Part shown: positions 18,780 to 46,321 of the stretch, piece by piece
How positions within the stretch are numbered: position 1 is the first letter of the stretch
How the letters are laid out: each line of letters opens with the position of its first letter
NCBI GenBank assembly: GCA_041664925.1
Contig: JBAYJV010000001.1
Span: 293,262 to 357,261 of the forward strand
Length of the DNA stretch: 64,000 nt
Reading direction: 5' to 3'
DNA from: Minisyncoccota bacterium
GTDB taxonomy: Bacteria > Patescibacteriota > Minisyncoccia > JBAYJV01
The notes under the pieces: model-generated
Told to the model about the DNA's origin: nothing
The model's input: the letters and a program-made list of their open reading frames with translations, nothing else
Database searches by the model: none
Position numbers and translations under genes: made by a program

Positions 18780-18850
18780 ATTTTTATAACTAAAATGATT
18801 ACATTTTTAGTTTAAGACAAAAAAATCACTAAGTAAAGGATAAAGAATTG

Positions 18851-18989
18851 TTATCCCCATCCCAAAACTTATCCCCAGTCATCCACACCTTTAAAAAGAT
18901 GTTGTTTTCATCGTGTTTGTTCGGTTAATTTATTGTCTATTATTCATATTTTATGGGGATTTTCTTAAAAACACCCTAAGTTATCCACA
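18851..18989 (+). promoter_or_regulatory. cluster of four same-orientation DnaA boxes (TTATCCCCA x2, TCATCCACA, perfect TTATCCACA) in tyrS-lexA divergent intergenic region
   Basis: boxes at 18851-18859, 18869-18877, 18879-18887, 18981-18989. Confidence 0.5.
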
Positions 18990-19104
18990 ATTGCTTTTCG
19001 GTTTTTGTTCGGTTAAAATTATTTGTGTTCGGCCTTCGTTGTCTTTTTTGACATAACTTCGGCCGACAAGTCGGCCTTTTAGCTGTTTTGATGTCTACTT
19101 TACT

Positions 19105-19722
19105 ATGCCAACAAAAAAATTTATTATTACAAGACGCCAAAAAGAGATTCTAGACTTTATCTTGGATTTCATGGATGAAAACGGTTACAGCCCAAGCCTA
19201 CGCGTTATTGGAAAGGCCATGGGGCTTTCGTCGCCTTCTTCTGTCCATGAACAAATAAAGAAGCTTCAGGAAGCTGGCTTTCTTGAAAGAGAAGATGATT
19301 CCAGATCATTTCTCCCATCAGGAAAAGCCTTAAATTTAACCGAGAAGTTTTCTGTGCCAGTTCTGGGAACTATTGCTGCCGGCTCACCAATTCAGGTCTT
19401 TGAATACCAAGAAAACTTGATGATTCCTAAAACATTAATTTCAAACGGCCACACTGATCTTTTCGCTCTTGAAGTTAAGGGAAATTCGATGATTGAAGAA
19501 GGTATTATGGATGGCGACTATGTTATTTGCGAACCGTCACAAAATGTTAAAAATGGCGATGTCGTAGTCGCTCTAGTTAATGGCACGGAAGTAACTTTAA
19601 AGAAATTCTATAAAGAGAAACGCTGGATTCGCCTTATGCCGGCAAATTCAAAAATGCGTCCTATTTTATCGCGAAATGTCTTGGTTCAAGGGGTTGTGAA
19701 AGCCGTGTTTAGAAAATACTAA
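19105..19722 (+). CDS. lexA: LexA repressor (S24 self-cleaving peptidase)
   Basis: N-terminal winged HTH (TRRQKEILDFI), Ala-Gly cleavage region, Ser (GNSM) / Lys (LKKF) dyad. Confidence 0.85.
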   Translation: MPTKKFIITRRQKEILDFILDFMDENGYSPSLRVIGKAMGLSSPSSVHEQIKKLQEAGFLEREDDSRSFLPSGKALNLTEKFSVPVLGTIAAGSPIQVFEYQENLMIPKTLISNGHTDLFALEVKGNSMIEEGIMDGDYVICEPSQNVKNGDVVVALVNGTEVTLKKFYKEKRWIRLMPANSKMRPILSRNVLVQGVVKAVFRKY

Positions 19723-19840
19723 ATTTTAATTTTCAACTATCAATCTTCAATTATCGACCAATTGTAGGATTGATTTTTTTAATTCAATTTTATCTAGATT
19801 TGTGCTAATCTATAAATAAGATTTTGTAAAATTACGAAAA

Positions 19841-21142
19841 ATGGCGAAAAAAAAGCAACCCAATTTATTCACTGAACCGCCTCAAGTTCTGTCGGTTTTT
19901 GATTATATTTCCCTTGTTAATTCTAATTTAGAAGTCCTTTCTGATATTGCTATAGAAGGCGAGGTTAGTGAGTTTAAGGTTTCTCAAGAAAAATGGGTAA
20001 CTTTCCGCCTCAAAGACGAAAAAGAAGAAGCTAGCATTGAATGTTTCACGGTTATTTTCAAATTAAATCAGCCTGTTGAGGATGGCATGAAAATAAGGGT
20101 TATTGGTCGTCCTCGTATCTATCCCCGCTATGGAAAATTTAGTATTAGTGTTGAAAATATTGAATTAACTGGCGAAGGATCGCTTAAGCGTGCCTTTGAA
20201 TTAACAAAACAAAAACTTCAAGTTGAAGGACTTTTCGACGAAGAAAGAAAGCGTCCCATCCCAGAATTTCCCAAGACAATCGGTCTGATCACTTCTCCAG
20301 ACGCTGCTGCTTACACAGATTTTCTTAAGGTTTTAAAACATCGTTTCGGTGGAATTAAGATTTATTTCTTCTCTGCTCGTGTTCAAGGAAAAGGCGCTGT
20401 CGAAGATATTGTCGAAGGCTTTGACTGGTTTAATCAAAATTATAAAAAGCTTGATATTCAGCTCGTTGTTTTAACTCGCGGCGGCGGAGCCTTGGAAGAT
20501 CTTCAGGCATTTAATTCTGAAGGTGTTGCTCGGGCTGTCTTTTCAAGTAAGATTCCCGTTGTCTGCGGCGTTGGTCATGAAAGAGATGAATCTCTTGTTG
20601 ATTTCGTTGCTGATCTTCGAGCGTCAACTCCTTCTAATGCCGCCGAATTAATCACCAGAGGAAGAGACGAGGTTGGCGCAGAAATAGAGGGAATTATTCA
20701 AAATATTGAATACTTATTAAAACATTCACTGGAAGAAAAACAGAGTTTTTTGAATCACTTTTTATCAAATTGTTCCCACTTTATCAGCGAAAAAACCTAC
20801 GAGACCAAGCAAATTCTTGTTACCTTTTTTCATCGGATTGAAACTATCGGCAGTGTTATTTTCCAAAAGAAACAAGAAATCGGTTTTATTTTAACAAATG
20901 TTGAAAAAAGCATTAAAAATCACCTAGGTACTTTTAATCGCACTGTTAGCCAACAAGAATCATTGTTAAAAAGTTATAATCCTTTAGGGGTTTTGAAGCG
21001 TGGCTATGGTATTGTTCGAAATAAAAATGGTAAAATTATAAAAAGTACCAAAGACATATTAATTGGAGACGACGTTGAAACGGTTATTCGCGACGGCAAC
21101 TTTATTTCTAAAGTTCAAACAATTAAACCAACTAATTCGTAA
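19841..21142 (+). CDS. xseA: exodeoxyribonuclease VII large subunit
   Basis: N-terminal OB-fold, central catalytic domain, 433 aa, followed by xseB. Confidence 0.85.
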   Translation: MAKKKQPNLFTEPPQVLSVFDYISLVNSNLEVLSDIAIEGEVSEFKVSQEKWVTFRLKDEKEEASIECFTVIFKLNQPVEDGMKIRVIGRPRIYPRYGKFSISVENIELTGEGSLKRAFELTKQKLQVEGLFDEERKRPIPEFPKTIGLITSPDAAAYTDFLKVLKHRFGGIKIYFFSARVQGKGAVEDIVEGFDWFNQNYKKLDIQLVVLTRGGGALEDLQAFNSEGVARAVFSSKIPVVCGVGHERDESLVDFVADLRASTPSNAAELITRGRDEVGAEIEGIIQNIEYLLKHSLEEKQSFLNHFLSNCSHFISEKTYETKQILVTFFHRIETIGSVIFQKKQEIGFILTNVEKSIKNHLGTFNRTVSQQESLLKSYNPLGVLKRGYGIVRNKNGKIIKSTKDILIGDDVETVIRDGNFISKVQTIKPTNS

Positions 21143-21150
21143 TCAAAAAT

Positions 21151-21375
21151 ATGCCCGAAAAAGAATTTAATTTCAAAGAAGCATTAGAAGAGCTCAAGAA
21201 AATCAATGAAGAATTTGATTCAGAAGAAATTGATTTAGATATCGCCCTGGAAAAATTCAAGCGTGGCCTTGAACTTGCTAAAAAATGCAAGGAAAAGCTA
21301 TTAGAAGTCGAAAATGAAGTAATTAAAATCAAGGAAAAATTTTCTGCTTCTACCAAAACCCAAGAAGACAATTAA
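21151..21375 (+). CDS. xseB: exodeoxyribonuclease VII small subunit
   Basis: 74 aa, FEEALEELEKI-type helical signature (NFKEALEELKKINEE). Confidence 0.8.
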   Translation: MPEKEFNFKEALEELKKINEEFDSEEIDLDIALEKFKRGLELAKKCKEKLLEVENEVIKIKEKFSASTKTQEDN

Positions 21376-21570
21376 ATCACAAAATTAATCCGTAGTTTTA
21401 TTTAAGTCCATGGGTCAAATACCAGAAAAAAGACAACATTACGAAGCAAAGGCTAAAAGATCTTTTGATTTTATCGCTAAAAAACTTAAGGGGATTAGCA
21501 GGGGACGATTTAGTATCCCTGGTCGCCATCCATCAAGACAAGAGGGGCACGGGAGGACAAAATAAATTAA

Positions 21571-22419
21571 ATGAATTTAAAAGAATTTAAAATAAGTCTT
21601 TTTTTAAAACAGGCTTTCTTTTTTATTTTTACTCAATTTCTAGGATTTCTAGCGCTTCTTCGCATTCAAAACCAGCCAATCATTAAAGAAATTGTTGAAA
21701 ATGAAACTCGAGGAGTTAGTGTTTGGGGATTTTTAGTTCAGTTTATTGTTGTGACCGCGGTATTTCTGGTTTTATTGCCTTTATTTAAGAAGAAGCCAGT
21801 TTTTCTTAAAATTCTTTTTTATTTTAGTATTTTCATTGGTATTAGTTTTCTCTTTGAATTGTTCCTAGGAGAACCATTGGCCGCAATTATATCAATCGGA
21901 TTAATCGTTCTTCTAATTATTAAACCATTTGTTATTTTTCATAATCTTATCTTTTCTGCTGCTTTTTCTAGTGTCGGATTGATCCTAGGGATAACGTTTC
22001 AGCCATTTTCAGTGGCTTTGATTTTAGCAATCTTGTCGCTGTATGATTTTATTGCTGTCTATTTTACGCGCCATATGGTGAAAATAGCCCAGGTGCCAGC
22101 CTCAGAAGGAATATTTTTTGGTTTATTGATTCCTCAGAAAAATAAATTTTTCTCCCAAACAAAAAATCTTAACAAAATCGGCAGTGGTACGGATTTTTCC
22201 TTTTTGGGTGGTGGCGACATGGTTTTTCCATTAATTCTTTCTTTGAGTATAGCAAGAAGTAGTTTTCTTGATGGCATTATTGTGTCTTTATTTTCTCTTT
22301 TCGGTCTATTTGCGCTTCATTTGATGTTTCATTTAAGAACAGATACCAAACCAATGCCAGGACTTCCTCCTTTGGTTTTTATGACTCTTTTGGGATATCT
22401 CGTTGTAACGATTTTTTAA
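21571..22419 (+). CDS. polytopic membrane protein with YD ... GxGD motifs (presenilin/signal-peptide-peptidase-like intramembrane aspartyl protease candidate)
   Basis: LSLYDFIAVY and FLGGGDMVFPL about 55 aa apart in TM segments, PGLP near C-terminus (PAL-like). Confidence 0.45.
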   Translation: MNLKEFKISLFLKQAFFFIFTQFLGFLALLRIQNQPIIKEIVENETRGVSVWGFLVQFIVVTAVFLVLLPLFKKKPVFLKILFYFSIFIGISFLFELFLGEPLAAIISIGLIVLLIIKPFVIFHNLIFSAAFSSVGLILGITFQPFSVALILAILSLYDFIAVYFTRHMVKIAQVPASEGIFFGLLIPQKNKFFSQTKNLNKIGSGTDFSFLGGGDMVFPLILSLSIARSSFLDGIIVSLFSLFGLFALHLMFHLRTDTKPMPGLPPLVFMTLLGYLVVTIF

Positions 22420-22465
22420 AAATGTTAAAATTGAGTAGAATTTCCCTTAATTTCTAGTTTTAATT

Positions 22466-23053
22466 ATGGCTGAAACAAAACAGTATTTAAAATATAAAAT
22501 CTGCGTTTCTGGAGCAGCTAATACAATTAATTGTCCTGAAAATGCCCTAGAAATGGCGGAGAAACTTGGGCAAGAAATTATTTGGCACAACGGTATCGTA
22601 GTAACCGGCGCAACAACTGGTATGCCTTACTGGGCGGCTAAAGGAGCTAAAATGGCTGGTGGAATCAGTATTGGTCTTTCTCCTGCTGCCAGCGAAATTG
22701 CTCATGTCAAAAAATATCGTCTTCCTGTTGATTATTTCGATGTCATTATTTACACAGGATTTAATTACGCCGGCAGAAACCTACTTCTAACCAGAGCTGC
22801 AGACGCTGTGGTTGTAACTTGTGGTCGCATGGGAACACTAAACGAGTTCACGATCGCTTTTGAAGATGATAAACCCATCGGCATTCTCGATCTTGAAGGA
22901 AATGACGGAACAACAGATATGATTAGAGACATTATAAAGGCTGCGCGCCGTGGGCAAGGAAAAATTGTTTATGATAGCGACCCTAAAAAACTTATTGAAA
23001 AATTAATTCCTCTTATTGACAAAGAGCGGGGAATTGAAACACCTAAACTTTAA
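22466..23053 (+). CDS. LOG/TIGR00725-family Rossmann-fold protein
   Basis: KICVSGAANT...GIVVTGATTGMPYWAAKGA pattern of COG1611/TIGR00725. Confidence 0.55.
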   Translation: MAETKQYLKYKICVSGAANTINCPENALEMAEKLGQEIIWHNGIVVTGATTGMPYWAAKGAKMAGGISIGLSPAASEIAHVKKYRLPVDYFDVIIYTGFNYAGRNLLLTRAADAVVVTCGRMGTLNEFTIAFEDDKPIGILDLEGNDGTTDMIRDIIKAARRGQGKIVYDSDPKKLIEKLIPLIDKERGIETPKL

Positions 23054-23063
23054 TTAAAAAAAT

Positions 23064-23558
23064 ATGGAAAATCTCATTGTTCATTATTCTTGGTCAGTGT
23101 TTCTTCTTCAGCTTGTTTTAGCGGCATTACTGGGAGGTTTTTTAGGACTTGAAAGAAATTATGTCGGAAAAGATGCCGGCACAAGAACTTTTGCTTTAAT
23201 TTCTCTTGGTTCTTGTCTTTTTACGATCATTTCTGTTGGCGCTTTCCAAAAATTCATAACAACGACTGGCGGTTCTTTTGATCCAGGCCGTGTTGCTTCT
23301 CAAATTGTTGCCGGTATTGGTTTTATCGGTATGGCTGTAATTTTTCGTCACGGAACTAATCTTGAAGGTGTAACAACTGCTGCAAGTATCTGGGTTGCCG
23401 CTGCTATCGGTATGGCTGTCGGCGTAGAGCTTTATGTCCTAGCTGCTATTGCAACAGTAATTGCCTTTTGTATCCAAGGTGTTTTAAGAATGGCGAATCT
23501 CGAAATGAGACTTGAAGAATGGCATAAACAAAGACAGAAAAATGTTAAAAAATCTTAG
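23064..23558 (+). CDS. mgtC: MgtC/SapB-family membrane protein
   Basis: LLGGFLGLERNYVGKDAGTRTFALISLG signature. Confidence 0.75.
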   Translation: MENLIVHYSWSVFLLQLVLAALLGGFLGLERNYVGKDAGTRTFALISLGSCLFTIISVGAFQKFITTTGGSFDPGRVASQIVAGIGFIGMAVIFRHGTNLEGVTTAASIWVAAAIGMAVGVELYVLAAIATVIAFCIQGVLRMANLEMRLEEWHKQRQKNVKKS

Positions 23559-24696
23559 AGTTTCTCTTAAAGCCATCTCTGTTATTGTCGGCACAATTAT
23601 TGGTGTCGGTATTTTTGGTTTACCTCAAGCAGTTGCCCGAATCGGATTTTTCCCTGGAATTGTCATGCTTGCTTTATTATCCTTGGCTACTCTTTACCTT
23701 CATTATCTTTACGGAGAAATTGTTCTGCGCACTAAATCAAAAAAAAGATTGGTCGGATATGCTGAAAAATATCTTGGCTCTAGGGGAAAAACAATTGCTG
23801 CTGCGTCGGCTCTTTTTGGTCTTGTCGGCTCTCAGTTAGCATATCTTATTGTTGGCGGTGACTTTCTTAAAATAATTTCGCGTAATATTTTGGGAAGTAA
23901 TCCGCTTTTTTATATTGCCATCTTTCTTATTGTTGGATCTCTTGTTGTTTTAAAAGGCACTTCAGCTATTGCAAGTGTGGATTTTTTGATGAGTGTCTTT
24001 TTAATAACAGTTATTGTTGTTATCTTCTGTATTGCTTTTCCTCAGATTGATACTGATCATTTCTCAGGAATAAATATGAAAAATACTTTCCCGGCTTATG
24101 GGGTAATGTTGTTTTCCCTGTCAGGCGCGATCGCTATCCCTGAGACAATTGAATATCTAAGAAAAAAGAAAAACAAAAATTACAAAACAGTTATTACTGT
24201 CGGCACGATTCTTCCCCATCTTTTATATGTTCTTTTTATTGTGGCAACGGTCGGTTTAGTTGGACGCACAATTGGCGAATCGGCAATTGCTGATCTAGAA
24301 ACCTACCTTGGAAGCAATATCGTTATTATTGGAGCCTTGTTTGGCATAATCGCTATTTTCACATCATTTATTGTTACGGGAGCAACGTTAATGAAAATTC
24401 TCTGGTATGACTACAAGATTCCTAAATTGCTCTCTTGGTTGATCATAAGCATCCTGCCCTTAGTTTTGTTTATTGGGGGCATACAAAGTTTTATTCTTAT
24501 TATTGGTGTTGTTGGAGCAGTTATGGGTGGAATTGATGGTATTCTTGTTATTCTAATTTTTCAAAAACTTAAAAAATCGTCAAACAGTAAGCCTGTGATA
24601 GTTTCTGAATTTTCTCAGCTTCTTAAGTGGTTATTGTTAACAATCTTTATTGTCGGTATCTTGTACGAGATTTATTATTTTGCCTCAACAAGATGA
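23512..24696 (+). CDS. amino-acid permease of the aromatic amino acid (Trp/Tyr, HAAAP) transporter family (start possibly 23542)
   Basis: 11 or more TM helices, N-terminal GTIIGVGIFGLPQAVARIGF motif. Confidence 0.5.
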   Translation: MKNGINKDRKMLKNLRVSLKAISVIVGTIIGVGIFGLPQAVARIGFFPGIVMLALLSLATLYLHYLYGEIVLRTKSKKRLVGYAEKYLGSRGKTIAAASALFGLVGSQLAYLIVGGDFLKIISRNILGSNPLFYIAIFLIVGSLVVLKGTSAIASVDFLMSVFLITVIVVIFCIAFPQIDTDHFSGINMKNTFPAYGVMLFSLSGAIAIPETIEYLRKKKNKNYKTVITVGTILPHLLYVLFIVATVGLVGRTIGESAIADLETYLGSNIVIIGALFGIIAIFTSFIVTGATLMKILWYDYKIPKLLSWLIISILPLVLFIGGIQSFILIIGVVGAVMGGIDGILVILIFQKLKKSSNSKPVIVSEFSQLLKWLLLTIFIVGILYEIYYFASTR

Positions 24697-25985
24697 GTTT
24701 ATTTGAAAAAGTAATTTTCTACGCTACGATTTTTCTTGTCCCGTTTAATATCAAAAAATTCGTAGCTAATCCTTTATCTATTGAGCCCTTAACTGAATTT
24801 GGCGCTCTTTTTTTATACCTATCAGACATATTAATCTTGATTCTTTTGGTGTTATGGCTCCATAAGAGTATTTCTCAAAAGAGACTGAAAATAAAAAAAC
24901 TGACTGCCATGATTGTTCCATTTCTATTTTTTGGTCTTTTTTTGACTTTATCTTTATTTTCTAGTAAAAATTTAACTATTAGTTTTTATTTCTTGGTTAA
25001 AATTTTACTTCTAATTAGTTTTTTTTATTATATTAGGTTAAAAATTAAAAAAGAAGAACTAGTAAATATTTATAAAATAATCTTTATCGGTGGTATTGTT
25101 CAGTCGTTAATTGCGCTAGGACAATACATTAAACAGGGTAGTTTGGGCTTAAGGTATTTGGGGGAAAGTGTTATTGCGCCAAATCTTTATGGCGTTGCCA
25201 AAGTTGATTTTCTTGGTCAGAAAATTGTCAGAAGTTACGGAACTTTTTCTCATCCTAATATTCTTGCTGTCTTTCTTTTGATTTCTATCTGTTGCATCCT
25301 GTGGCTCGTTTTAAAACACGGGAAACCCATTTGCCTTATCGGATTACCTATTATTGTTTTAGGTCTTACCTTGACCTTCTCACGCACTACAATTTTTTTG
25401 GGATTAATCTTTGTTCTGTTTTTTCTTTTTTATTCATGGTTAAAAGCTAAGCAATTAAAATTATCTCAAAAAATGGTTATTGAAACAGCTTCTGTTTTCT
25501 TTGTATTTACTGTAGCTTTTGTTATTATTTTTGCTCCCTTAATGATTCAGCGGTTTAATATTCAAAAAGAAGAACAAGCCGTTTCTTTGAGGGTTTTTTA
25601 CAATAATGCTGCTTTTAATATAATAAAAAAATCGCCATTAACGGGCGTAGGTTTAGGTAATTTCATTATTAAACTCAAAGAATCTTATCCTGGTCTTTCC
25701 TCCTGGCAATATCAGCCAGTTCACAATATTTATCTTTTGGTATTTTCTGAAATTGGTATTTTTGGGATTGTCGCCTTTTTATCTGTTTTATTTCTGATTT
25801 TTAAAAATTGTTTAAAGTCTAAAATTTATGGTTTAGATTTAGTAGTTTTTAGTGGCTTAGGAGTTGTTTTTTTGGCCATTGGTCTTGTTGATCACTTTTT
25901 CTTCACTATCAATCAAGGAATATTGTTGTTCTGGTTGATTTTGGGAATAATTAGTAATAAAATTATATCAGTTCCTGAAAAGTAA
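24693..25985 (+). CDS. O-antigen ligase / Wzy-type polymerase-like membrane protein (ATGA overlap with upstream stop; track ORF starts 24627)
   Basis: polytopic, Wzy_C-like loop with GTFSHPNILAVFL. Confidence 0.55.
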   Translation: MSLFEKVIFYATIFLVPFNIKKFVANPLSIEPLTEFGALFLYLSDILILILLVLWLHKSISQKRLKIKKLTAMIVPFLFFGLFLTLSLFSSKNLTISFYFLVKILLLISFFYYIRLKIKKEELVNIYKIIFIGGIVQSLIALGQYIKQGSLGLRYLGESVIAPNLYGVAKVDFLGQKIVRSYGTFSHPNILAVFLLISICCILWLVLKHGKPICLIGLPIIVLGLTLTFSRTTIFLGLIFVLFFLFYSWLKAKQLKLSQKMVIETASVFFVFTVAFVIIFAPLMIQRFNIQKEEQAVSLRVFYNNAAFNIIKKSPLTGVGLGNFIIKLKESYPGLSSWQYQPVHNIYLLVFSEIGIFGIVAFLSVLFLIFKNCLKSKIYGLDLVVFSGLGVVFLAIGLVDHFFFTINQGILLFWLILGIISNKIISVPEK

Positions 25986-26091
25986 GGAGGGTGCCATGGC
26001 GGTAGTAATGGGATGCGGTCCGATTCCTATAATTCGCAGGGTTCCGACGAACAAAAAGAAACACAAGTAGTTCCTAAAAAAAACAAAGACA

Positions 26092-26125
26092 GCGCCTAAA
26101 AGCGCTGCTTTTTTTATTCTATATT
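26092..26125. terminator. bidirectional terminator (CAGCGC-ctaaaa-GCGCTG + T7)
   Basis: hairpin flanked by A8 and T7. Confidence 0.55.
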
Positions 26126-26157
26126 CTAACTTCCAACTTCTAGCTTCTAGCTTCTAA
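26118..26157. repeat. heptanucleotide tandem array (CTTCTAG/CTTCTAA/CTTCCAA, about 5 units) in 3' UTR of dciA-like gene
   Basis: period-7 repeats directly visible. Confidence 0.6.
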
Positions 26158-26462
26158 CGCGCCACCTTTACTTTTATTTCCTTAATTAAAGAACCAATCA
26201 ATACTCGGTTGGTTTTGTCTTTTATTTCATCCTGATAAAATCTCAGTTCTTGCGCCAGATAACTATTGGCACATTTAACATACAGTACCGATCCTCTGAA
26301 TTCAAACTTCATATCCTGATCTAAGACGCATTTCTCAAAACCTAACAACTTCTCAATAACTTTTCTTGCTTCCTTAAAAACTTCAATTCTTTCAAGTCCT
26401 CTTTTAAACCTCGGATCTTTTTTTACTTTATTAATAGCATAATTTATACTGCTGAAAGCCAT
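26154..26462 (-). CDS. DUF721-family protein (DciA-like candidate replicative-helicase operator/loader), adjacent to dnaN
   Basis: 102 aa, position immediately downstream of dnaA-dnaN, C-terminal pattern LYVKCANSYLAQEL...RVLIGSLIKEIKVKV resembling DUF721. Confidence 0.45.
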   Translation of the reverse strand: MAFSSINYAINKVKKDPRFKRGLERIEVFKEARKVIEKLLGFEKCVLDQDMKFEFRGSVLYVKCANSYLAQELRFYQDEIKDKTNRVLIGSLIKEIKVKVAR

Positions 26463-26463
26463 A

Positions 26464-27573
26464 TTATTCAGTATCGCGAACTGGCATAGCGATATAAGTA
26501 TACGAATTATCGGTTGCCGATTTCATTAATAATGGCCTTTCTTTGCCGTTTGCTCGTAAAATCACCTTATTTTTATCAGTATTATTAAGTCCGTCTATGA
26601 GATAGCGATAATTAAAGACTAGTTTTACATCTTCGCCCTTAACTTCCGCTTTAATGCTTGAATTATGTTCTCCTAATTCTTGAGATTTAGAAGATATTTC
26701 AATCAGTCCTTTATTAGAAAAAGAAAGATTAATGTCATTAACTTTTGTAACAAAAAAACTAGCAATCTTAATCGCTTCAATTAGTTTGTCTTTTTCAACC
26801 ACAACCTCTGTTTGGAATTCTTGAGGAATAATTCTTTCGTAATCGGGAAAATGACCTTCTATTAATCTTGATATCAGTTGAATGTCTTCAATGTCAAACA
26901 AAATCTGATTTTCTTTAATTGTAATTTTAATATCCTTATCAATATCACTTAAAATTCTTGTAAGTTCAATAATGGTTTTTAGTGGGATAATCAAGGATAT
27001 TTCTTGGTTTTGTTGAGGAAGAGCTTTTTTCATTACCTTTTCTGCTAAACGAAAACTATCAGTCGCTACTAATTTAAGATCGCCTTGTTGGGTGATTTTA
27101 AACAAGACACCAGAAATCTCTGGTCTAGTATCGGAAAAAGAAGCTGCTTGGTGAACTTGAGACAAAGCTTTGTGAAAATCTCTTGATTTAATAATAAAGA
27201 GTGGATTCTCTTCTATTTTGGGAATAATCGGAAAATCCTCAGCGCTCATTCCTTTAATATTTGCGTTGAAATTATTGCATTTAACCATTAGGTCGTGCTT
27301 TTCCGATTCGAGACTGACTTTGTCTTGAGGAAGAGAAGAAACAAAATTACTCAAAACCCCGACTGGAACAGTAATTTTTCCATCTTCATCAACCTTTGCT
27401 GATACCCAAGTAGTTAATCCGATCTCAAGATCAGTCGCCGAAACCTTGAGTCTGCCTTTATCTGTTTCAATTAAAATATTACTCAAAATAGGCAGGTTGA
27501 TATTTTTTCCAGTAACTCGTTCAACGATACTAATGGCTTTTTTTAATTTTTCTTGAAGACAAATAATTTTCAT
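26464..27573 (-). CDS. dnaN: DNA polymerase III beta sliding clamp
   Basis: 369 aa three-domain clamp pattern, position after dnaA. Confidence 0.9.
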   Translation of the reverse strand: MKIICLQEKLKKAISIVERVTGKNINLPILSNILIETDKGRLKVSATDLEIGLTTWVSAKVDEDGKITVPVGVLSNFVSSLPQDKVSLESEKHDLMVKCNNFNANIKGMSAEDFPIIPKIEENPLFIIKSRDFHKALSQVHQAASFSDTRPEISGVLFKITQQGDLKLVATDSFRLAEKVMKKALPQQNQEISLIIPLKTIIELTRILSDIDKDIKITIKENQILFDIEDIQLISRLIEGHFPDYERIIPQEFQTEVVVEKDKLIEAIKIASFFVTKVNDINLSFSNKGLIEISSKSQELGEHNSSIKAEVKGEDVKLVFNYRYLIDGLNNTDKNKVILRANGKERPLLMKSATDNSYTYIAMPVRDTE

Positions 27574-27864
27574 AATTATTATTAATATTTTATATATTTA
27601 AAGAACTAATTATTACTAAGAATTTTTATTTTGGGGATAAGTTCTAGAAAATTGTTATTTGGCGCGGGTAAATCACTAAAGCTCATACGGATTATCTGTG
27701 AATATCTCGGGATTTTTTCTCTAAACACGAGGATAAGTTTTTCAATTTTAATTTTCTGAAAAATATATCCATCGAATTGTACGCGTGATTAACCAATGGT
27801 TATCCTCAGCTTTTCCCCAGAAATTAGTAAGTCTATAAAACTTCTTTGACAGAAAAAGCAAACC
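27574..27864. promoter_or_regulatory. candidate oriC: AT-rich unwinding stretch plus DnaA-box-like 9-mers in dnaA-dnaN intergenic region
   Basis: one-mismatch boxes TGGGGATAA (27632-27640), TTATCCTCA (27800-27808), plus weaker ones; AT-rich tract 27574-27640. Confidence 0.55.
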
Positions 27865-29232
27865 TTAGGTGTTGTAAAGTCGCTCCTTTATTAGGTTTAA
27901 CTCCATTACGAGACCTTCATCTAATTGGCGATTGTGTTCGACTTTATCGCAAGCATGTATAACTGTCGTGTGATCGCGGCCACCGAGTTTTTTTCCGATA
28001 GAAGGATAAGATTCGTGAAGCTCTTCCCTGAGAAGATACATCGATATCTGACGCGGTTTGACTAATTCTTTTTTTCGGCCTCCCTCAATAATGTCTTCTA
28101 GAGGTATTTCATAAAACTCCGCAACTGTCTCTAATATCTTTGAAGAAGAAACACGCTTGGGTGGTCTCACAATTAAATTTTTCAAAAGCTCTTTAGCTTT
28201 TTCTAAATCAGGAATACTGTTATTAGATTTATAGTAAGCATGAATTTTATTTAAAGAACCTTCAAGTTCGCGAACGTTTTTTTGAACTTTACTGGCAATA
28301 AAATGAATAATATCGTCAGAAAGATTGTATTCTAAGGTTTCAAGTTTAGATTTAAGAATAGCAATGCGGGATTCGAAATCTGGATAAGAAATATCAACCG
28401 TCATACCTCCCTCAAAACGGGAACAGAGGCGTTCTTCTAGGGTAGGAATTGCCTTAGGCGGGCGATCAGAGCTGATAATAATTTGCTTATTGGCTTCATA
28501 TAAAGCATTAAAAGTGTGGAAAAATTCAATCTGGGTTTTCTCCTTTCCGGCCAAGAATTGAATATCGTCAATAATCAAAACATCAATCTTGCGATATTTC
28601 TTTTTAAAATCTTCCATTCTTTGGGTGCGGATAGCGTCAATTAACTCACTCGTAAAAGCTTCGGAAGAAATATATTTAACCTTAATTTGTCCGGGATACT
28701 GTTTAACTAATTCGTTGCCGATTGCCTGTAAGAGATGAGTTTTTCCTAAACCAACACCGCCATAAATAAAAAAGGGATTATATTCCCTTCCAATGTTTTC
28801 TGGTTTTACCAAAGAGAGAGCAGCAGCGTGAGCAAGTTCATTGAACGAACCGACAATAAAAGTCGAAAAATCGTATTTAGGATTTAAATTGGTTTCCTCA
28901 TCGATGATTCGATTATTAAGCAATCCCAACTGAGGTTCTTGAGCTGATTCTTCAGGGCGACGATTAATAATAACATCAACAACTCTTCTGGAAGCAACAA
29001 TATATTCCAATTTCTTTACTTCGGGAGAAACATTGCGCAAAGCGCGCAGGATTAAAGTGTTACATCTATTTTCAAGCCACTCGCGAGTGAACTGATTGGG
29101 AACTTCAAGTGTACAAATACCTTCATTTCTGGAAACAAGTCGAGCGTTTTTAATCCAAGTAACAAAATTGGCCTTAGAAACAGATAATTCTATTTCACCG
29201 ACAGCAGCTTGCCAAAGTTCTTCAATGTTCAT
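27865..29232 (-). CDS. dnaA: chromosomal replication initiator DnaA
   Basis: AAA+ Walker A GGVGLGKTHLL, Walker B LIIDDIQF, C-terminal DNA-binding domain. Confidence 0.95.
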   Translation of the reverse strand: MNIEELWQAAVGEIELSVSKANFVTWIKNARLVSRNEGICTLEVPNQFTREWLENRCNTLILRALRNVSPEVKKLEYIVASRRVVDVIINRRPEESAQEPQLGLLNNRIIDEETNLNPKYDFSTFIVGSFNELAHAAALSLVKPENIGREYNPFFIYGGVGLGKTHLLQAIGNELVKQYPGQIKVKYISSEAFTSELIDAIRTQRMEDFKKKYRKIDVLIIDDIQFLAGKEKTQIEFFHTFNALYEANKQIIISSDRPPKAIPTLEERLCSRFEGGMTVDISYPDFESRIAILKSKLETLEYNLSDDIIHFIASKVQKNVRELEGSLNKIHAYYKSNNSIPDLEKAKELLKNLIVRPPKRVSSSKILETVAEFYEIPLEDIIEGGRKKELVKPRQISMYLLREELHESYPSIGKKLGGRDHTTVIHACDKVEHNRQLDEGLVMELNLIKERLYNT

Positions 29233-29523
29233 AAACGAAGGATAACATCTTTAAGGTTATTTTAGCACGGAATCTTTAAATGCAATCTTTATCAACAAAT
29301 GCGTGAATAATGCTGTTTTAGGGGATTAACCTGCATTTTTTGTTGATAACCTGTGTAAAACTCCTTAATAACATCATTATTCTATATCTAACCCACCTCC
29401 AATTGCAATAGATACGCAAAATCAGAAATTCTTACCTAATCTAAAAAACACTTGAGTGTTTTGGGTGGTGACATCAAAACTAAAATGATAAAATAAGAAC
29501 ATGCTTAATTAATAATTTTTAAA
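29233..29523. promoter_or_regulatory. dnaA upstream region with two inverted one-mismatch DnaA boxes (TTATCAACA)
   Basis: 29289-29297 TTATCAACA and 29341-29349 TGTTGATAA. Confidence 0.45.
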
Positions 29524-31953: not shown

Positions 31954-32325
31954 ATGAACCTAGAACAAGAATCAATCTCGCCAGAACAGTCACAAGAAAA
32001 AAAAGAACCGATTTTTGATCAAGAAAAATTTAGGTCACTATGTGCAATATGGAAAGAAGAAGAGACAAAAATGCACAGTTGTATGAAGGCCTCTTTCATA
32101 AAAGGAGCAAAAGAACATGAAGGGAAAGCAAAAGAAGCATATGACCAATTATTGGAAATAGCAGAAGCAGCCCTAAAGGAAAGCAATGGAGATAGAAAAA
32201 TTTTTAACGAAATAACAAGAGCAATTTTAAAAATAGAATCCTATGGGGGGGGATCAGAAACCATTGATCTTACAGATTTTCTTGAAGATTTGGTTTTGAA
32301 GATTGTTTCAGAAAGGAGCGAATAA
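31954..32325 (+). CDS. hypothetical acidic protein (123 aa)
   Basis: strong RBS AAAGGAGGAATAAAAAT-ATG; followed by terminator; immediately upstream of radical SAM gene. Confidence 0.45.
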   Translation: MNLEQESISPEQSQEKKEPIFDQEKFRSLCAIWKEEETKMHSCMKASFIKGAKEHEGKAKEAYDQLLEIAEAALKESNGDRKIFNEITRAILKIESYGGGSETIDLTDFLEDLVLKIVSERSE

Positions 32326-32345
32326 TTAGCTTTATTTTGAGAAAC

Positions 32346-32376
32346 AAAACGGCGATAGATGTCGCCGTTTTTTAAT
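32346..32376 (+). terminator. rho-independent terminator (ACGGCGA-tagatg-TCGCCGT + T6)
   Basis: perfect 7-bp GC-rich stem + T-run. Confidence 0.6.
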
Positions 32377-32456
32377 TTATTATGAATAAATTATTTATAG
32401 CACTCCATTTATATTTAATAGAGGGTATAATAAGATAAGAATAATTATTTTTAGCG

Positions 32457-33476
32457 GTGTTGTCGCAAATGAATAAATTAATCAATAAAATTCTTAAAGA
32501 ATTAAGCTATCAGACAGGGCGATATATGGTTTCGCCTGAATATGTGAGCTTAATGATTACAGGAAAGTGCAATTTTCGTTGCCAAACCTGTTCTATTTGG
32601 CAAAAAAAGGAAAAAAAGGAATTAAACGAAGCGGACTGGCTTAGAATAGCCCATGAATTAAGCGACGCCTTGAAGCCAGACACTTTTATAGAAATAAATG
32701 GTGGAGAGCCATTAATGAGACCTTCTTTAACTATTTCTCTTGTAAAAGAACTAAAGAGGTATTTTAAAAAAGTAACCCTTAATTCGAATGGATCACTGAT
32801 TAATGAAGAAATCCTTGATCAGCTTAAAAAGGCAGGGCTGGGTACTATAAAAATGTCATTTTATAGCCTAGACGAGAAAATCCATAATCAATTGCGTGGA
32901 AATTCCCTGGCTTATGATCAGGCGATGAAGACCATAAGCCTCATAACAAAGAAGCAAATTGAACTTGAAATTGGCTTGCTCATTACTTCCAAAAACATAA
33001 AAAATGCGGTAGAATTGGTTATGTACCTTCAAACACTTCCCAAAACATCAATTATCCTTCAGCCGCTTGACGAGAAGATTGGTTTGCCCCAATCTTTGAA
33101 TAGATCCGACAATAAATTAATTACCAGTCTTTGGCCAAAAAGAGACGACATTGACACTTTCTTTTCTTGGATAGAAAAAAACAGGCAAAAAATAAAAAAC
33201 TCGTCTGCCAATTTGGAAGCAATTAGGCAATATTATTTAGATCCAAAAAGTACCTTAAGTTTTCGTTGCTTTGCTGGTCAGAGAAGTCTAATTATTCAAC
33301 CCGACGGCGACGTCTTATTGTGTTTTAAAGGAAAAAGCATTGGAAATATAAAAAATCAGAGCGTGAAAAAAATCCTTAAGAACGCCATAAGCGAACGAAA
33401 GAAAATAAAAAATTGCCAGAAATATTGCCGTATTATTGGTTGTAATTTTTCCCGTGGCCTGAAAGAAATGTTATAG
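32457..33476 (+). CDS. radical SAM enzyme with C-terminal SPASM/twitch-like Cys-rich domain
   Basis: CNFRCQTC (CxxxCxxC) near N-terminus; C-terminal C-x17-(Gx4C) then CQKYCRIIGC cluster. Confidence 0.75.
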   Translation: MLSQMNKLINKILKELSYQTGRYMVSPEYVSLMITGKCNFRCQTCSIWQKKEKKELNEADWLRIAHELSDALKPDTFIEINGGEPLMRPSLTISLVKELKRYFKKVTLNSNGSLINEEILDQLKKAGLGTIKMSFYSLDEKIHNQLRGNSLAYDQAMKTISLITKKQIELEIGLLITSKNIKNAVELVMYLQTLPKTSIILQPLDEKIGLPQSLNRSDNKLITSLWPKRDDIDTFFSWIEKNRQKIKNSSANLEAIRQYYLDPKSTLSFRCFAGQRSLIIQPDGDVLLCFKGKSIGNIKNQSVKKILKNAISERKKIKNCQKYCRIIGCNFSRGLKEML

Positions 33477-33513
33477 GAGAACAAAGGGAAGACTTTAATT
33501 ATGAGAAATTTTT

Positions 33514-34341
33514 ATGAATCCGACTACATCAATTGTTATTAGAACAAAAAACGAAGAAAAATATCTAGAAAAAGTTCTTCAAATCCTGAAGCAACAAACC
33601 TATCAGGATTTTGAGATTGTTATTGTTGACGATCATTCAACTGATCGAACTTTAGAAATTGCGCAAAATTATGGATGCAAGATTGTGTCTGTTCCCAAGG
33701 GGAAATTCACTTATCCTTATGCTTGTAACGTCGGTGTTAAAAATAGTGTTGGTCGCTATATTGTCTTTTTGAGCGGACACTCTATACCTATCAATAATGA
33801 TTGGCTTAGAAATGGATTATCTAATTTTCGGAATGAGGACGTCTCTGGCGTGTATAGCGTAGTCTCGGCTTTACCCAATGCAAATCTACTAGAAAGATTT
33901 TTGTATGGCACGAATGTTATTTTTAATAAAAAAAGGACCATCATTGATAGGCCTGAAAAAGTTGGCATGGGTGTTTTGGGTTTTACAAATGCGATTATAG
34001 ATAAGCATCTTTGGGAAAGATATAATATTGACGAAAAATTTGCCAGGGGTGGTGAAGATACAGCCTGGGCTAGGTATTGGGTAGAAAGAGGGTTTGTCGT
34101 GATTCATGACAAAAGATTTAGAGTTTATCACTCTCACAACATGGGTCCAATCGGTCAAGTAAAGCAATTTGCCAATTGGGTGACATTGAGCAAGCCAAGG
34201 AAATTTAAAGCACAAGACAGGAATTTTGAGGTTGACTTAGAAGTTCAGAAAAGTTGCTCAACTCCGTCTTGTTATTTTCGTAAGGCGAAAGTCAGTATTT
34301 TTTCTTTTGCTAAAAAGATTTTTGAGGAAGAGAATAGTTAA
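33514..34341 (+). CDS. family-2 glycosyltransferase
   Basis: IVIRTKNEEKYL...FEIVIVDDHSTDRT GT-A fold DxD region. Confidence 0.7.
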   Translation: MNPTTSIVIRTKNEEKYLEKVLQILKQQTYQDFEIVIVDDHSTDRTLEIAQNYGCKIVSVPKGKFTYPYACNVGVKNSVGRYIVFLSGHSIPINNDWLRNGLSNFRNEDVSGVYSVVSALPNANLLERFLYGTNVIFNKKRTIIDRPEKVGMGVLGFTNAIIDKHLWERYNIDEKFARGGEDTAWARYWVERGFVVIHDKRFRVYHSHNMGPIGQVKQFANWVTLSKPRKFKAQDRNFEVDLEVQKSCSTPSCYFRKAKVSIFSFAKKIFEEENS

Positions 34342-34408
34342 TAGAGTAATATCATATATTAACACTTGACAATATTATCGCGAGGCGTTATCATAGATTA
34401 ATATAAGC

Positions 34409-34690
34409 ATGATTGAGAGTTTTCATTGCAAAGAAACACAGAAGATTTTTAAAAGAGAAACCTCTTCTAAGCTTCCTCATTTAATTCAACGATCAGCCGT
34501 AAGAAAACTTTTAATAATAGATGCGGCTGTGTCCTTAAAAGATCTTCGTATTCCCCCAGCTAATCATTTAGAGAAATTAAGGGGGAAAAGAAAAGGACAG
34601 CATAGTATTCGCATCAATGGTCAATGGCGCATATGTTTTGAATGGAAACAAGGCAATGCTTATAGGGTAGAGATTTGCGATTATCATTAA
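34409..34690 (+). CDS. higB: HigB-type toxin (plasmid maintenance system killer protein, RelE superfamily)
   Basis: MIESFHCKETQKIF...RKGQHSIRINGQWRICFEW...ICDYH matches HigB (COG3549) pattern. Confidence 0.8.
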   Translation: MIESFHCKETQKIFKRETSSKLPHLIQRSAVRKLLIIDAAVSLKDLRIPPANHLEKLRGKRKGQHSIRINGQWRICFEWKQGNAYRVEICDYH

Positions 34691-34699
34691 TAAAAAAAC

Positions 34700-35005
34700 A
34701 TGACCACAAAAAAAATGAAACCAATTTATCCGGGAGAAGTCCTTAAAGAAGAATTTTTAAAACCCCTTGAAATCTCGGAATATCGCCTAGCGAAGGATAT
34801 TGCCGTATCTCCCAGACGCATCAATGAAATTACACATGGAACAAGGGCGATTACTGTTGATACGGCGCTTCGTTTTGCCAAATATTTTGGCAATTCACCT
34901 CAGTTTTGGCTAAATTTACAATCGCATTACGAATTGGAGATACAAGAAGAAAGCATGAAAGATATCTTGAAATATAAGGTAAAAACCCTTAATTATGCGA
35001 TGTAA
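34700..35005 (+). CDS. higA: HigA antitoxin (XRE-family HTH)
   Basis: MKPIYPGEVLKEEFLKPL...SPQFWLNLQ matches HigA (COG3093). Confidence 0.8.
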   Translation: MTTKKMKPIYPGEVLKEEFLKPLEISEYRLAKDIAVSPRRINEITHGTRAITVDTALRFAKYFGNSPQFWLNLQSHYELEIQEESMKDILKYKVKTLNYAM

Positions 35006-35031
35006 AAAGTACTAATAGAATTAAAAAACAA

Positions 35032-35066
35032 AAAAACAGCTCTTGATAAGCTGTCTTTTTTTTTAT
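35032..35066. terminator. bidirectional terminator (ACAGCT-cttgata-AGCTGT + T9), part of duplicated ~65-bp repeat
   Basis: hairpin with A-run/T-run. Confidence 0.6.
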
Positions 35067-35072
35067 GTTCAT

Positions 35073-35819
35073 TTACTTAATCAATTCTTGGGAAAAGGGA
35101 TTAGTGCGTCTAGTTTTATATAATACCTTAAGATAATTTTTAAGAATTATTGGCAATGTTTTTGCAAATTTTATCGGGTGACGATATTTTCTTAAACTTG
35201 TATCAATATTCATCAATGGGTCGTGTAAAATTGGAGCTTTGTTTTTATAGTGATATTGTCTTTTAACGGTGATTGAAATATATAAATCTTCCAAGCGCTT
35301 GTAAGTTAAATCGAAACCACCGATATCTAAAAAAGCTTTTTTCCGAATAGCCATGTTGTTGCCGAAAAGAAAAGTCAGTCCAAGCTTAAAATGAGCTTTT
35401 TGAAAATTGTTCGATATAAAAGTAGGGAATCGTTTTTTTTCATAGAAATTTTTTCCGCCACATGCTATTACTTTTTTATTGCGCATATTCTTTTCAATTC
35501 TTTCTAACCACTCGGCTGATACGATGGAATCAGCATCAGTAGTCGCTATTATTGGATAGTGCGCATACAAAAATCCTTTCTGGCGAGCAAACACAATACC
35601 CTGACACTTTTCTTCCAGTAATTTAACATCCAAGAAACCATTTTTAATAAATTGTTTTACTACGGCAACGGATCTGTCGGTCGAGTTATTGTTAACTACA
35701 ATAATCTCAAATGGCCCCGGAAAAATTTGTTTTTCAAAGGCTTTTAGACATTTAAGTATAGTGTTTTCCTCGTTATATAACGGTATTACAACAGAAATCA
35801 TAATATTAAATTTTAACAC
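35073..35819 (-). CDS. family-2 glycosyltransferase
   Basis: MISVVIPLYNEENTI...IIVVNNNSTDRS GT-A N-terminal signature. Confidence 0.7.
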   Translation of the reverse strand: MLKFNIMISVVIPLYNEENTILKCLKAFEKQIFPGPFEIIVVNNNSTDRSVAVVKQFIKNGFLDVKLLEEKCQGIVFARQKGFLYAHYPIIATTDADSIVSAEWLERIEKNMRNKKVIACGGKNFYEKKRFPTFISNNFQKAHFKLGLTFLFGNNMAIRKKAFLDIGGFDLTYKRLEDLYISITVKRQYHYKNKAPILHDPLMNIDTSLRKYRHPIKFAKTLPIILKNYLKVLYKTRRTNPFSQELIK

Positions 35820-35837
35820 ACTTTATTTTCTACCACT

Positions 35838-36530
35838 ATGTTTGTCTTTATTGATGTTCATGTTATTATAGTAATCAACATGAAAAGCATTTTTGACAGG
35901 AATTATTTCACAAAAGAATATTATTACAAAAGAAAAAGATCTAATTATTCGAATTATAGTCGTTTTGATAACAATGCGTTCTGGAGACCGGTCATAAAAG
36001 TTATAAAGAAATATAAAATGAGTGGAAATTTTTTAGATCTAGGATGTGCTTTTGGATTTCTTTCTAAAAGGGTTATTCCATATTTTACGAATGTGTATGG
36101 TCTGGACATATCAGAATACGCAATTAGTCGTGCGCAAAATCAAACAGATTCAGTTAGATTTGTCAGTGCAGATCTTAATAAAAAAACACTTCCTTACAAT
36201 GATAATTATTTTAACTGCGTAGCCGCTCTTGATATTATAGAGCATACCGAATCAACAGAAAACACTCTTAAAATAATAACAAAAAAATTAGCTCCTAATG
36301 GATATTTAATTATAGGTTTTCCCGTCAGAGATACGGTTATGGGGAAAATTGTAGGAATTTTTGATAAAGACCCAACACACATTAGTATTGTTAACAGAAA
36401 AACACTTAAAGAACAGATATTAAAAGCAGGGCTAAGCGTAGTAGAACAACACTATTTCACAAAAGTTTTAGGTGTTCATGTGCGGGGCTTATCAGGAAAT
36501 ATTTTTATAGTCGCTCGGAAACAAAAATAA
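35838..36530 (+). CDS. class I SAM-dependent methyltransferase (start possibly at internal Met 35880)
   Basis: motif I FLDLGCAFGFL, motif post-II ALDIIEH. Confidence 0.7.
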   Translation: MFVFIDVHVIIVINMKSIFDRNYFTKEYYYKRKRSNYSNYSRFDNNAFWRPVIKVIKKYKMSGNFLDLGCAFGFLSKRVIPYFTNVYGLDISEYAISRAQNQTDSVRFVSADLNKKTLPYNDNYFNCVAALDIIEHTESTENTLKIITKKLAPNGYLIIGFPVRDTVMGKIVGIFDKDPTHISIVNRKTLKEQILKAGLSVVEQHYFTKVLGVHVRGLSGNIFIVARKQK

Positions 36531-44462: not shown

Positions 44463-45401
44463 TTATAAAGTTGTAATTGGTCGAGCTTGGAGAATATAAA
44501 GCGTATTATTTTCAAGCGCCCATTCAATATCTTGCGGCTTTCCGTAATGATTTTCAATATTGATAGCGATTTTCGCCAATTCCTTGATTTTTTCATTTGA
44601 TAATTTCTGTTTATCTTTTTTATCGTCAGGTACTGCTCTTTCTTCTGTGTCAAAATCAGGTTTTCTGACAATCATTTTTGTTTGTTCAGATGTGCTGACA
44701 TCAATAAAATTGAGAGTGCTTTTTTCAATAACATAACTATCGGGCGTAATACTTCCCTGAACTAAAGCTTCTCCCAATCCCCAACAAGCCTCCGCAATCA
44801 TTTGATCTTTATCTCGAGTGACTGGATGGACCGTAAAACAAACGCCGGCAACTTCAGAATCAATCATTTTTTGGACTACTACTGCCACAGAAACCAATTT
44901 TCCTTTATAACCACGCTCGAATCTGTAACATAGTGCTCTTGGAGAAAACAGCGAAGCCCAACATTTTTTTACGCTTTCTAAAACATTATTTTTGTTTATA
45001 AAAAGATAGCTTTCAAGTTGGCCTGCCCAAGCGTCAATAGCGGAATCTTCGGCAGTAGCTGACGACCTGATGGCAACATATTCTGTGTCAAGATTATCAA
45101 AATTAATTAAAATTTCTTCTTTAATATTCTCAGGAATGCTTCCATTAGAAACGATATTATGAATTTCTTCTGAACAGGATTCTATGGCTGAAGAATCCTG
45201 AGTATCAACCTTGTCCAATAATTTATCAATTTTTGTTTTAATATCGTTATCTTTTAAAAATTTATCAAAAGCAGAAGCAAGGACAACAAAACCCGGAGGA
45301 ACAGGGATGCCCGCCTGAGTCATTTCGCCCAGAGACGCTCCTTTTCCACCGGCAATTCCTACATCATTTTTTGAAATTTCTCTAAAATTCTTGATATACA
45401 T
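44463..45401 (-). CDS. stand-alone PPDK_N / PEP-synthase N-terminal ATP-grasp nucleotide-binding domain protein
   Basis: VGIAGGKGASLGEM, GIPVPPGFVV, VAIRSSATAEDS, GVCFTVHP, DIEWA...LQARPITTL; no swivel or TIM-barrel domain. Confidence 0.8.
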   Translation of the reverse strand: MYIKNFREISKNDVGIAGGKGASLGEMTQAGIPVPPGFVVLASAFDKFLKDNDIKTKIDKLLDKVDTQDSSAIESCSEEIHNIVSNGSIPENIKEEILINFDNLDTEYVAIRSSATAEDSAIDAWAGQLESYLFINKNNVLESVKKCWASLFSPRALCYRFERGYKGKLVSVAVVVQKMIDSEVAGVCFTVHPVTRDKDQMIAEACWGLGEALVQGSITPDSYVIEKSTLNFIDVSTSEQTKMIVRKPDFDTEERAVPDDKKDKQKLSNEKIKELAKIAINIENHYGKPQDIEWALENNTLYILQARPITTL

Positions 45402-45422
45402 ATTATTTTAATTATTTTTTAA

Positions 45423-46298: not shown

Positions 46299-46321
46299 GA
46301 TATTTGTAAAATTAATTAAAA

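Follow-up and report, generated by a model that had tools for sequence, protein, structure and literature searches.

On the dnaA-sense strand, the module described for the replication origin (oriC) of Bacillus subtilis reads TTATCCACA-AATCCACA-GGCC-CTACTATTACTTCTACTA and continues as an AT-rich run; written 3' to 5', it is AATAGGTGT-TTAGGTGT-CCGG-GATGATAATGAAGATGAT (Pelliciari et al. 2021, supplement, PMC8287927). In that study, the distance between the DnaA box and the DnaA-trios peaks at 10-13 nt (PMC8287927). Bipartite origins (oriC1/oriC2) flank dnaA in Helicobacter pylori and Clostridioides difficile (PMC7561715, PMC3479198). As for the gene that encodes DciA, 15 of 23 phyla have it inside a dnaA-dnaN-recF-gyrB-gyrA operon (Brezellec et al. 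2016, PMC5109545). DciA proteins that consist of the domain only make up Group 4, which occurs mainly in Bacteroidetes, Thermotogae, and others, Rickettsia included; they do not have the extensions needed for DnaB contact in Vibrio cholerae and for viability in mycobacteria, and none has been studied biochemically (Blaine et al., bioRxiv 10.1101/2022.01.24.477630). Here we examine a dnaA-dnaN-dciA locus in a 64-kb stretch of contig JBAYJV010000001.1 (hereafter the window), which comes from a Candidatus Paceibacterota/Patescibacteria bacterium. With its B. subtilis-like dnaA-dnaN layout, this locus is very probably the chromosomal replication origin. The lineage is uncultured and has small genomes, and we know of no origin that has been tested in it.

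Results

An original prediction, made from the sequence of the window, had placed dnaA, dnaN, a 102-amino-acid (aa) open reading frame (ORF), and a 291-bp dnaA-dnaN spacer in this region and had interpreted them as a replication origin. The ORF list and hidden Markov model matches put all four where they were predicted (Table 1), and the interpretation is supported by conserved DnaA boxes, an unwinding-type module, the least stable DNA of the window, and a local switch in GC skew at third codon positions (GC3 skew). The dnaA product scores 516 bits against TIGR00362 (cutoff 344) and also matches the Pfam families DnaA_N, Bac_DnaA, and Bac_DnaA_C. Forty-two dnaA loci of species-representative genomes served for comparison, together with a further one on a metagenome contig of 769 kb. 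The closest dnaA loci belong to metagenome-assembled genomes (MAGs) of Patescibacteria. Protein identity to the closest relatives is 55-77 per cent, and the dnaA orthologues in loci L001-L003 are 74-77 per cent identical. The order dnaA-dnaN-dciA is kept in relatives. Comparison with related genomes had been suggested as a check on the prediction, and it finds the gene order, the boxes, and the box-trio module recurring in Patescibacteria.

All four one-mismatch DnaA boxes that had been listed on either side of dnaA were recovered in a box scan (Table 1). Across the entire window, the number of one-mismatch boxes (21) is not enriched over the 17.2 expected, so only local clustering and conservation carry weight. 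The 582 bp flanking dnaA hold four of these boxes where 0.16 would be expected (Poisson estimate ~2e-5). In thirty-one Patescibacteria loci, the dnaA-dnaN spacer holds boxes at 10.75/kb and the 300 bp upstream of dnaA at 6.76/kb, compared with 0.36/kb elsewhere. Alignments with the closest relatives show the boxes as conserved islands within otherwise diverged spacers. The box nearest dnaN keeps its core, TT.TCCCCA, in L001-L003 and L043. The locus therefore has what is expected of an oriC in this respect, a cluster of DnaA boxes adjoining dnaA.

Immediately before the dnaN ATG, 67 bp are made up of that same box, TTATCCCCA (27640-27632), the 12-nt sequence aaataaaaattc, the triplets TTA GTA ATA ATT (27619-27608), and thirty-four more A/T-rich bases. 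Following the rules in PMC8287927, a basal unwinding system consists of a box and, no more than 16 bp after it, three or more trios in the correct orientation; here the gap is 12 nt and there are four triplets. Within the trio region, TAATAAT is invariant in a five-way alignment. The AT-rich tract noted in the original prediction at the dnaN-side start of the spacer is present as claimed, and by nearest-neighbour free energy no 40-, 60-, or 80-bp stretch anywhere in the 64 kb is less stable than the ones it contains (~27562-27632). In terms of predicted duplex stability, then, an AT-rich element lies beside the boxes, as in an oriC. This tract must also contain the translation start signals of dnaN.

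Because NTN triplets are common in A/T-rich DNA, we tested whether the module is specific to one orientation. We looked for a DnaA box (two mismatches at most) that is followed, after no more than 16 nt, by a run of four or more NTN triplets, the first being CTA or TTA. In the dnaA-to-dnaN orientation this pattern occurs in sixteen of thirty-two Patescibacteria spacers, always 64-117 bp before dnaN. As controls, one of the thirty-two reverse complements carries it, as do 2.5 per cent of the boxes elsewhere in the loci. More distant relatives keep a full tandem-box form (e.g. TTATCCACCTATCCACA-tcc-CTAATAGTAATA), and in the clade of the window the 12-nt gap is a decayed proximal box.

The Moranbacteria-type loci (L008-L016 and L019) have short dnaA-dnaN spacers of 43-157 bp. 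In most of these the boxes form a tandem pair of opposite orientation (TGTGGATAAnnTGTGGATAA), and trio runs are absent from all of them. The unwinding site of this group may lie elsewhere or be differently organised.

We also examined strand composition. Raw and cumulative GC skew in the window mostly follow the coding strand, and the main turning point, at ~36-37 kb, is where a 27-kb run of minus-strand genes begins. Raw GC skew was for this reason dropped as an indicator of the origin and replaced by strand-corrected GC3 skew. For the window, the per-gene skew of fifty-eight genes was fitted as a constant plus a term for co-orientation with forks that start from a trial origin. The fit is best for a trial origin at 26.5-27.7 kb, with the polarity of an origin (R2 0.15-0.16). 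The permutation P value for this switch is 0.0015 at the fixed position of the spacer and 0.031 for the maximum over all positions. When pooled over thirty related loci, the GC3 contrast peaks at the spacer. Referred to the plus strand, the pooled GC3 skew is -0.10 to -0.15 for plus-strand genes to the left of dnaA, -0.11 for dnaA, +0.16 for dnaN and dciA, and +0.18 to +0.24 for minus-strand genes further to the right. Since dnaA resembles the genes on its left and dnaN those on its right, the switch is mapped to about one gene and falls after dnaA. In seventeen of eighteen loci, the minus-strand genes of the two sides show a difference of the expected sign (P = 7e-5). At the local scale of the window and thirty related loci, the locus thus shows the switch in strand composition that marks an oriC.

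Several observations weigh against an origin in the spacer. The skew signal from the window by itself is modest (R2 0.15). NTN triplets are common in DNA of 65 per cent A+T, so the trios rest on conservation and orientation and not on the window alone, and the trios of the window (AAT, CAT, TAT, TAA) match the 3'-[G/A]AT-5' consensus loosely. The window's densest DnaA-box cluster is not here at all; it is in the divergent tyrS-lexA intergenic region, 8.7 kb from dnaA-dnaN. Gene orientation is not origin-like either. Within up to 10 kb to the right of dnaN-dciA in the related loci, 88 per cent of coding bases are on the opposite strand (twenty-seven loci), and forks that start at 27.6 kb would meet roughly three-quarters of the window's coding bases head-on, with about one-quarter co-oriented. 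To the left of dnaA in the related loci, 65 per cent of coding bases are co-oriented. The head-on gene blocks of the window span 19105-25985 and 36586-63444.

Gene orientation mostly opposite to that predicted around an origin could mean that the chromosome is replicated from a site outside the window, with the boxes around dnaA serving only to regulate transcription of dnaA and dnaN. Origins far from dnaA do occur in other bacteria, for example in E. coli. We nevertheless consider such a distant origin most improbable, given the origin-type sign change of GC3 skew at this locus in the window and in thirty relatives, the conserved and orientation-specific unwinding-type module at the spacer, and the location of the window's least stable DNA in the spacer tract. 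As the skew puts the head-on genes on the lagging-strand template, we treat their orientation as an unexplained feature of the locus and not as evidence for another origin.

The tyrS-lexA cluster was absent from the original prediction and was found by the box scan. Its four same-strand boxes lie within 139 bp, and one of them (18981-18989) is a perfect TTATCCACA, which occurs nowhere else in the window. Conservation in L001, L002, and L043 extends to this perfect box and to the tandem pair (L001 19307; L002 ~21100-21250; L043 19580-19700). With divergent flanking genes and a local minimum of raw GC skew at ~19 kb, this intergenic region might itself be taken for the true origin. That has next to no chance of being correct: none of the boxes is followed by a trio run, there is no exceptional AT tract (the least stable stretch ranks at ~1 per cent of the window), and the strand-corrected skew fit at ~19 kb reaches an R2 of ~0.06, against 0.15-0.16 at dnaA-dnaN. 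The pooled skew step is likewise at offset 0 from dnaA-dnaN and not at +8.7 kb. In addition, the conserved sequence around the perfect box, with its two exact TGTTCGGTTAA repeats, resembles a lexA promoter/operator. The absence of trios, the unexceptional AT content, and the poorer skew fit led us to reject the cluster as an origin. Its conserved boxes instead suggest DnaA control of lexA and/or tyrS, or titration of DnaA.

The same intergenic region has further features. The two exact TGTTCGGTTAA copies are at 18918-18928 and 19006-19016 and are followed by a related TGTGTTCGG, which is part of a block that is nearly invariant in L001 and L002. A search of the window for further TGTTCGGTTAA copies that could be LexA operators found none beyond the pair upstream of lexA. 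The TGTTCGGTTAA/TGTGTTCGG block may serve this clade as its LexA operator. A perfect hairpin, GGCCGAC-AA-GTCGGCC, followed by TTTT (19061-19080), immediately precedes the lexA start; it might act as a leader or attenuator, or else mark where a small transcript ends.

We next consider the region upstream of dnaA. The two hexamers of a putative dnaA promoter (Table 1) are both invariant in an alignment with L001-L003. Between this promoter and the dnaA start are three boxes, a TTTTACACA-gg-TTATCAACA tandem at 29360-29341 and an inverted TGTTGATAA. Each of them is conserved in L001-L003, and some of the copies there are a perfect TTATCCACA. Their position, downstream of a conserved -35/-10 pair, is the one expected where a promoter is autoregulated. 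The boxes most likely let DnaA repress dnaA, and they may have an autoregulatory role instead of belonging to the origin. They may also form a second cluster, the left half of a bipartite origin.

In many bacteria the unwinding site is upstream of dnaA. Were that the case here (29233-29523), the spacer would hold regulatory boxes and the dnaN promoter. The three conserved boxes, their perfect TTATCCACA copies in relatives, and a box density of 6.76/kb across loci all favour such a site, and the resolution of the pooled skew is hardly finer than one gene. However, the boxes occupy the positions expected in an autoregulated promoter, and the box-trio module was not found in this region. Its least stable DNA ranks in the top 0.5-7 per cent of the window, whereas the spacer tract ranks first. 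Finally, the pooled GC3 skew of dnaA (-0.11) resembles that of the genes to its left, which puts the switch after dnaA. We therefore judge an unwinding site upstream of dnaA to be very unlikely and retain the spacer as the proposed oriC proper.

Directly after dnaN, the 102-aa ORF had been likened to DUF721 from its C-terminal pattern. It passes the gathering cutoff of Pfam PF05258 (DciA, formerly DUF721), scoring 30.3 bits where 24 are required (E 4.9e-7), and it is the C-terminal half that aligns. The dciA ATG is 1 nt past the dnaN stop (TAA-T-ATG), a spacing from which we expect that dciA is probably co-translated with dnaN. ORFs of 83-106 aa occupy the same post-dnaN position in almost all related loci, and fourteen of seventeen match PF05258 individually (best E 5.4e-13). 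A search with tblastn using the DciA of the window found only the three closest relatives, and the other positional orthologues were taken as ORFs and then tested by Pfam. A profile of these ORFs has a single PDB sequence match, 7ykm, which is the DUF721 domain of Deinococcus radiodurans DciA. The homologues carry precomputed PF05258 annotations, and NCBI names them 'DciA family protein' or 'DUF721 domain-containing protein'.

Structural comparison points the same way. The AlphaFold model of the 102-aa protein (predicted local distance difference test, pLDDT, 83) has no disordered tail. In Foldseek, the first three ranks are two V. cholerae DciA chains from the complex with DnaB (8a3v) and 7ykm, and ranks four and five are DnaA domain I (4tps). 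The model thus has a predicted KH-like fold related to DnaA domain I, as in DciA, and the gene is located in a replication cluster, at the same position in relatives. Two points argue against a typical DciA. The PF05258 alignment covers half of the protein and of the profile (residues 55-98 to profile positions 46-89 of 89), and the protein is without the terminal extension that contacts DnaB in V. cholerae and is essential in mycobacteria. As its 102 aa are essentially all domain, we place it with Group 4, still within the DciA family. Among the fifty-eight long ORFs of the window that were taken as genes, there was no Pfam match to DnaC, DnaI, or DnaB, and the only IstB/AAA-type Pfam matches in the window are to DnaA itself.

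Table 1. Features of the proposed origin and its surroundings, in window coordinates.
Feature	Position	Strand	Basis
dnaA, chromosomal replication initiator, 455 aa	27865..29232	-	TIGR00362, Pfam; domain I, AAA+, and DNA-binding domain IV all present
dnaN, DNA polymerase III beta sliding clamp, 369 aa	26464..27573	-	TIGR00663 (293 bits) and three beta-clamp Pfam domains
dciA, domain-only DciA/DUF721, 102 aa	26154..26462	-	PF05258, fold match
dnaA-dnaN spacer, 291 bp, proposed oriC proper	27574..27864	-	Box density
AT-rich tract, candidate DNA unwinding element, 58 bp, ~93% A+T	27574..27631		Nearest-neighbour free energy
DnaA-trio-like triplets TTA GTA ATA ATT (other strand 3'-AAT CAT TAT TAA-5')	27608..27619	-	Start 12 nt past box
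DnaA box TTATCCCCA, proposed anchor of unwinding module	27632-27640	-	One mismatch
DnaA box TTATCCTCA	27800-27808	+	One mismatch; minus-strand reading TGAGGATAA 27808-27800
Distal spacer boxes	TGGGGAAAA 27819-27811, TGAGGATAA 27808-27800, TTATCCTCG 27736-27728, ATATTCACA 27705-27697	-	
DnaA boxes TTATCAACA	29289-29297, 29341-29349	+, -	One mismatch each
Upstream box group between putative promoter and dnaA start	29289..29360	-	TTTTACACA 29360-29352, TTATCAACA 29349-29341, inverted TGTTGATAA 29297-29289
Putative dnaA promoter TTGCAA, 18 nt, TAGAAT	29379..29408	-	Consensus scan, 9/12 matches
HExxH protein, 422 aa, divergent from dnaA	29524..30792	+	Motif
Bidirectional terminator-like hairpin, closes dnaN-dciA and convergent wzy-like gene	26089..26108		Terminator scan, both strands
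tyrS-lexA intergenic box cluster	Boxes 18851-18989 within 18780-19104		Four same-strand boxes in 139 bp
tyrS-lexA boxes	TTATCCCCA 18851; TTATCCCCA-g-TCATCCACA (tandem TTATCCCCAgTCATCCACA) 18869-18887; perfect TTATCCACA 18981-18989		

The remaining features of Table 1 concern the immediate neighbourhood. As the original prediction had noted, rpmH and rnpA are absent upstream of dnaA, and a divergent HExxH ORF takes their place. The HExxH family numbers ~24 sequences, in which H318, E319, and H322 are invariant. The protein had no match in Pfam or NCBIfam. It shows 100 per cent identity to a protein of an NCBI MAG of Candidatus Paceibacterota (WC242_02450). Its AlphaFold model has a pLDDT of 85, and the only PDB similarity is a weak one to the putative zinc metallopeptidase 4l7a (E 0.03). 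In the closer relatives L001-L003 and L043 the gene is missing here and tatD adjoins dnaA, for which reason we regard the HExxH gene as a lineage-specific insertion next to the origin. Further along, an accessory block at 31954-36530, between tatD and metG, encodes a radical SAM/SPASM protein, two family-2 glycosyltransferases, a HigB-like toxin with a helix-turn-helix partner, and a methyltransferase. In L043 tatD and metG are adjacent, and the block looks like a small island inserted near the origin.

On the other side of the locus, the terminator-like hairpin is 45 nt downstream of dciA. A 7-bp tandem repeat of five copies (AGAAGCT/AGAAGTT-like, minus strand; 26124-26158) overlaps the dciA stop and is not conserved in relatives. 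There is also a 24-codon ORF (MAVVMGCGPIPIIRRVPTNKKKHK; 25996-26070, plus strand), preceded by GGAGGG, with the wzy-like gene on one side and the bidirectional terminator on the other. Rfam, run on all 64 kb at gathering thresholds, returned no match. At some distance, the minus-strand region 44463-50682 encodes a PPDK_N (ATP-binding) protein, a protein without a Pfam match (45423-46298), and three tandem paralogues of ~480-510 aa, each with only a C-terminal PEP-utilizers mobile domain. This is an unusual split and amplified arrangement of a PEP (phosphoenolpyruvate)-utilising enzyme.

Discussion

The arrangement of boxes, trios, and AT-rich tract allows a mechanism to be proposed. DnaA would bind the double-stranded boxes of the spacer, anchored at TTATCCCCA (27640-27632). 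An ATP-DnaA oligomer would then extend from this anchor box onto the trios (27619-27608), and the 58-bp AT tract just upstream of the dnaN start would open. The small DciA would help to deliver the replicative helicase DnaB to the opened site.

A wider reading joins these steps to the other observations. Patescibacteria origins might fire from a minimal, single-box basal unwinding system, with the dnaN-side fork meeting conserved head-on genes (88 per cent on the opposite strand in twenty-seven loci), boxes at the lexA promoter tying the SOS repressor to the status of the initiator, and a tail-less DciA, made in step with the clamp, loading the helicase. If true, this would amount to a reduced but distinctly wired circuit for initiation and stress in bacteria of the candidate phyla radiation. 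That all of these parts hold together seems to us rather unlikely.

Every component of the locus is of a known kind, and relatives are already annotated accordingly. No new kind of system is revealed; what is new is a member from a candidate phylum, along with a few side observations. The result is a well-argued origin assignment for an uncultured, small-genome lineage, and the site could be used to anchor the orientation of MAGs and coverage-based (peak-to-trough) estimates of growth rate. It also indicates that the B. subtilis-type module of box, trios, and AT tract just before dnaN reaches into Patescibacteria, and this lends support to the idea of an ancient module. For DciA, the locus and its relatives add candidate-phylum examples of the domain-only form.

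As in the ancestral operon dnaA-dnaN-recF-dciA-gyrB-gyrA (PMC5109545), dciA is linked to dnaA and dnaN in the window. Here, however, it is the gene right after dnaN and the last of the operon; neither recF nor gyrB nor gyrA adjoins it, and a convergent gene comes next. In its predicted fold, which is KH-like, the protein is closest to the DciA proteins of V. cholerae (8a3v) and D. radiodurans (7ykm), and its gene is part of a replication gene cluster, although sequence identity to them is 15-17 per cent and the protein has 102 aa rather than 157. A C-terminal helical hairpin/linker binds DnaB in V. cholerae DciA, and the DciA of the window is without such a part. Like Group 4 proteins, it is single-domain, with fewer than fourteen residues outside the domain on either side. 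The Group 4 survey excluded candidate phyla, and Patescibacteria are unclassified there (10.1101/2022.01.24.477630).

With the oriC1/oriC2 arrangement of H. pylori and C. difficile (PMC7561715, PMC3479198), the locus shares boxes on both sides of dnaA and a predicted unwinding site downstream of dnaA. The upstream cluster here differs in that it is possibly a mere autoregulatory operator.

In comparison with the oriC of B. subtilis (incC, boxes 6 and 7, trios, AT-rich element), the second, box-7-like site and the GC cluster have degenerated here into the A/T-rich 12-nt gap, and the trios are looser. The genes rpmH-rnpA are not upstream of dnaA in the window. Genes for the loaders DnaD, DnaB(Bsu), and DnaI were not seen in the window, where a dciA gene is present instead. 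Both modules lie between dnaA and dnaN, just upstream of dnaN, and both origins have further boxes upstream of dnaA. The 12-nt distance between box and trios falls within the published 10-13 nt peak. Order and orientation are common to the two, with TTATCC.CA on the dnaA-sense strand, ~12 nt, NTN triplets (3'-NAN-5' on the opposite strand), and an AT-rich run.

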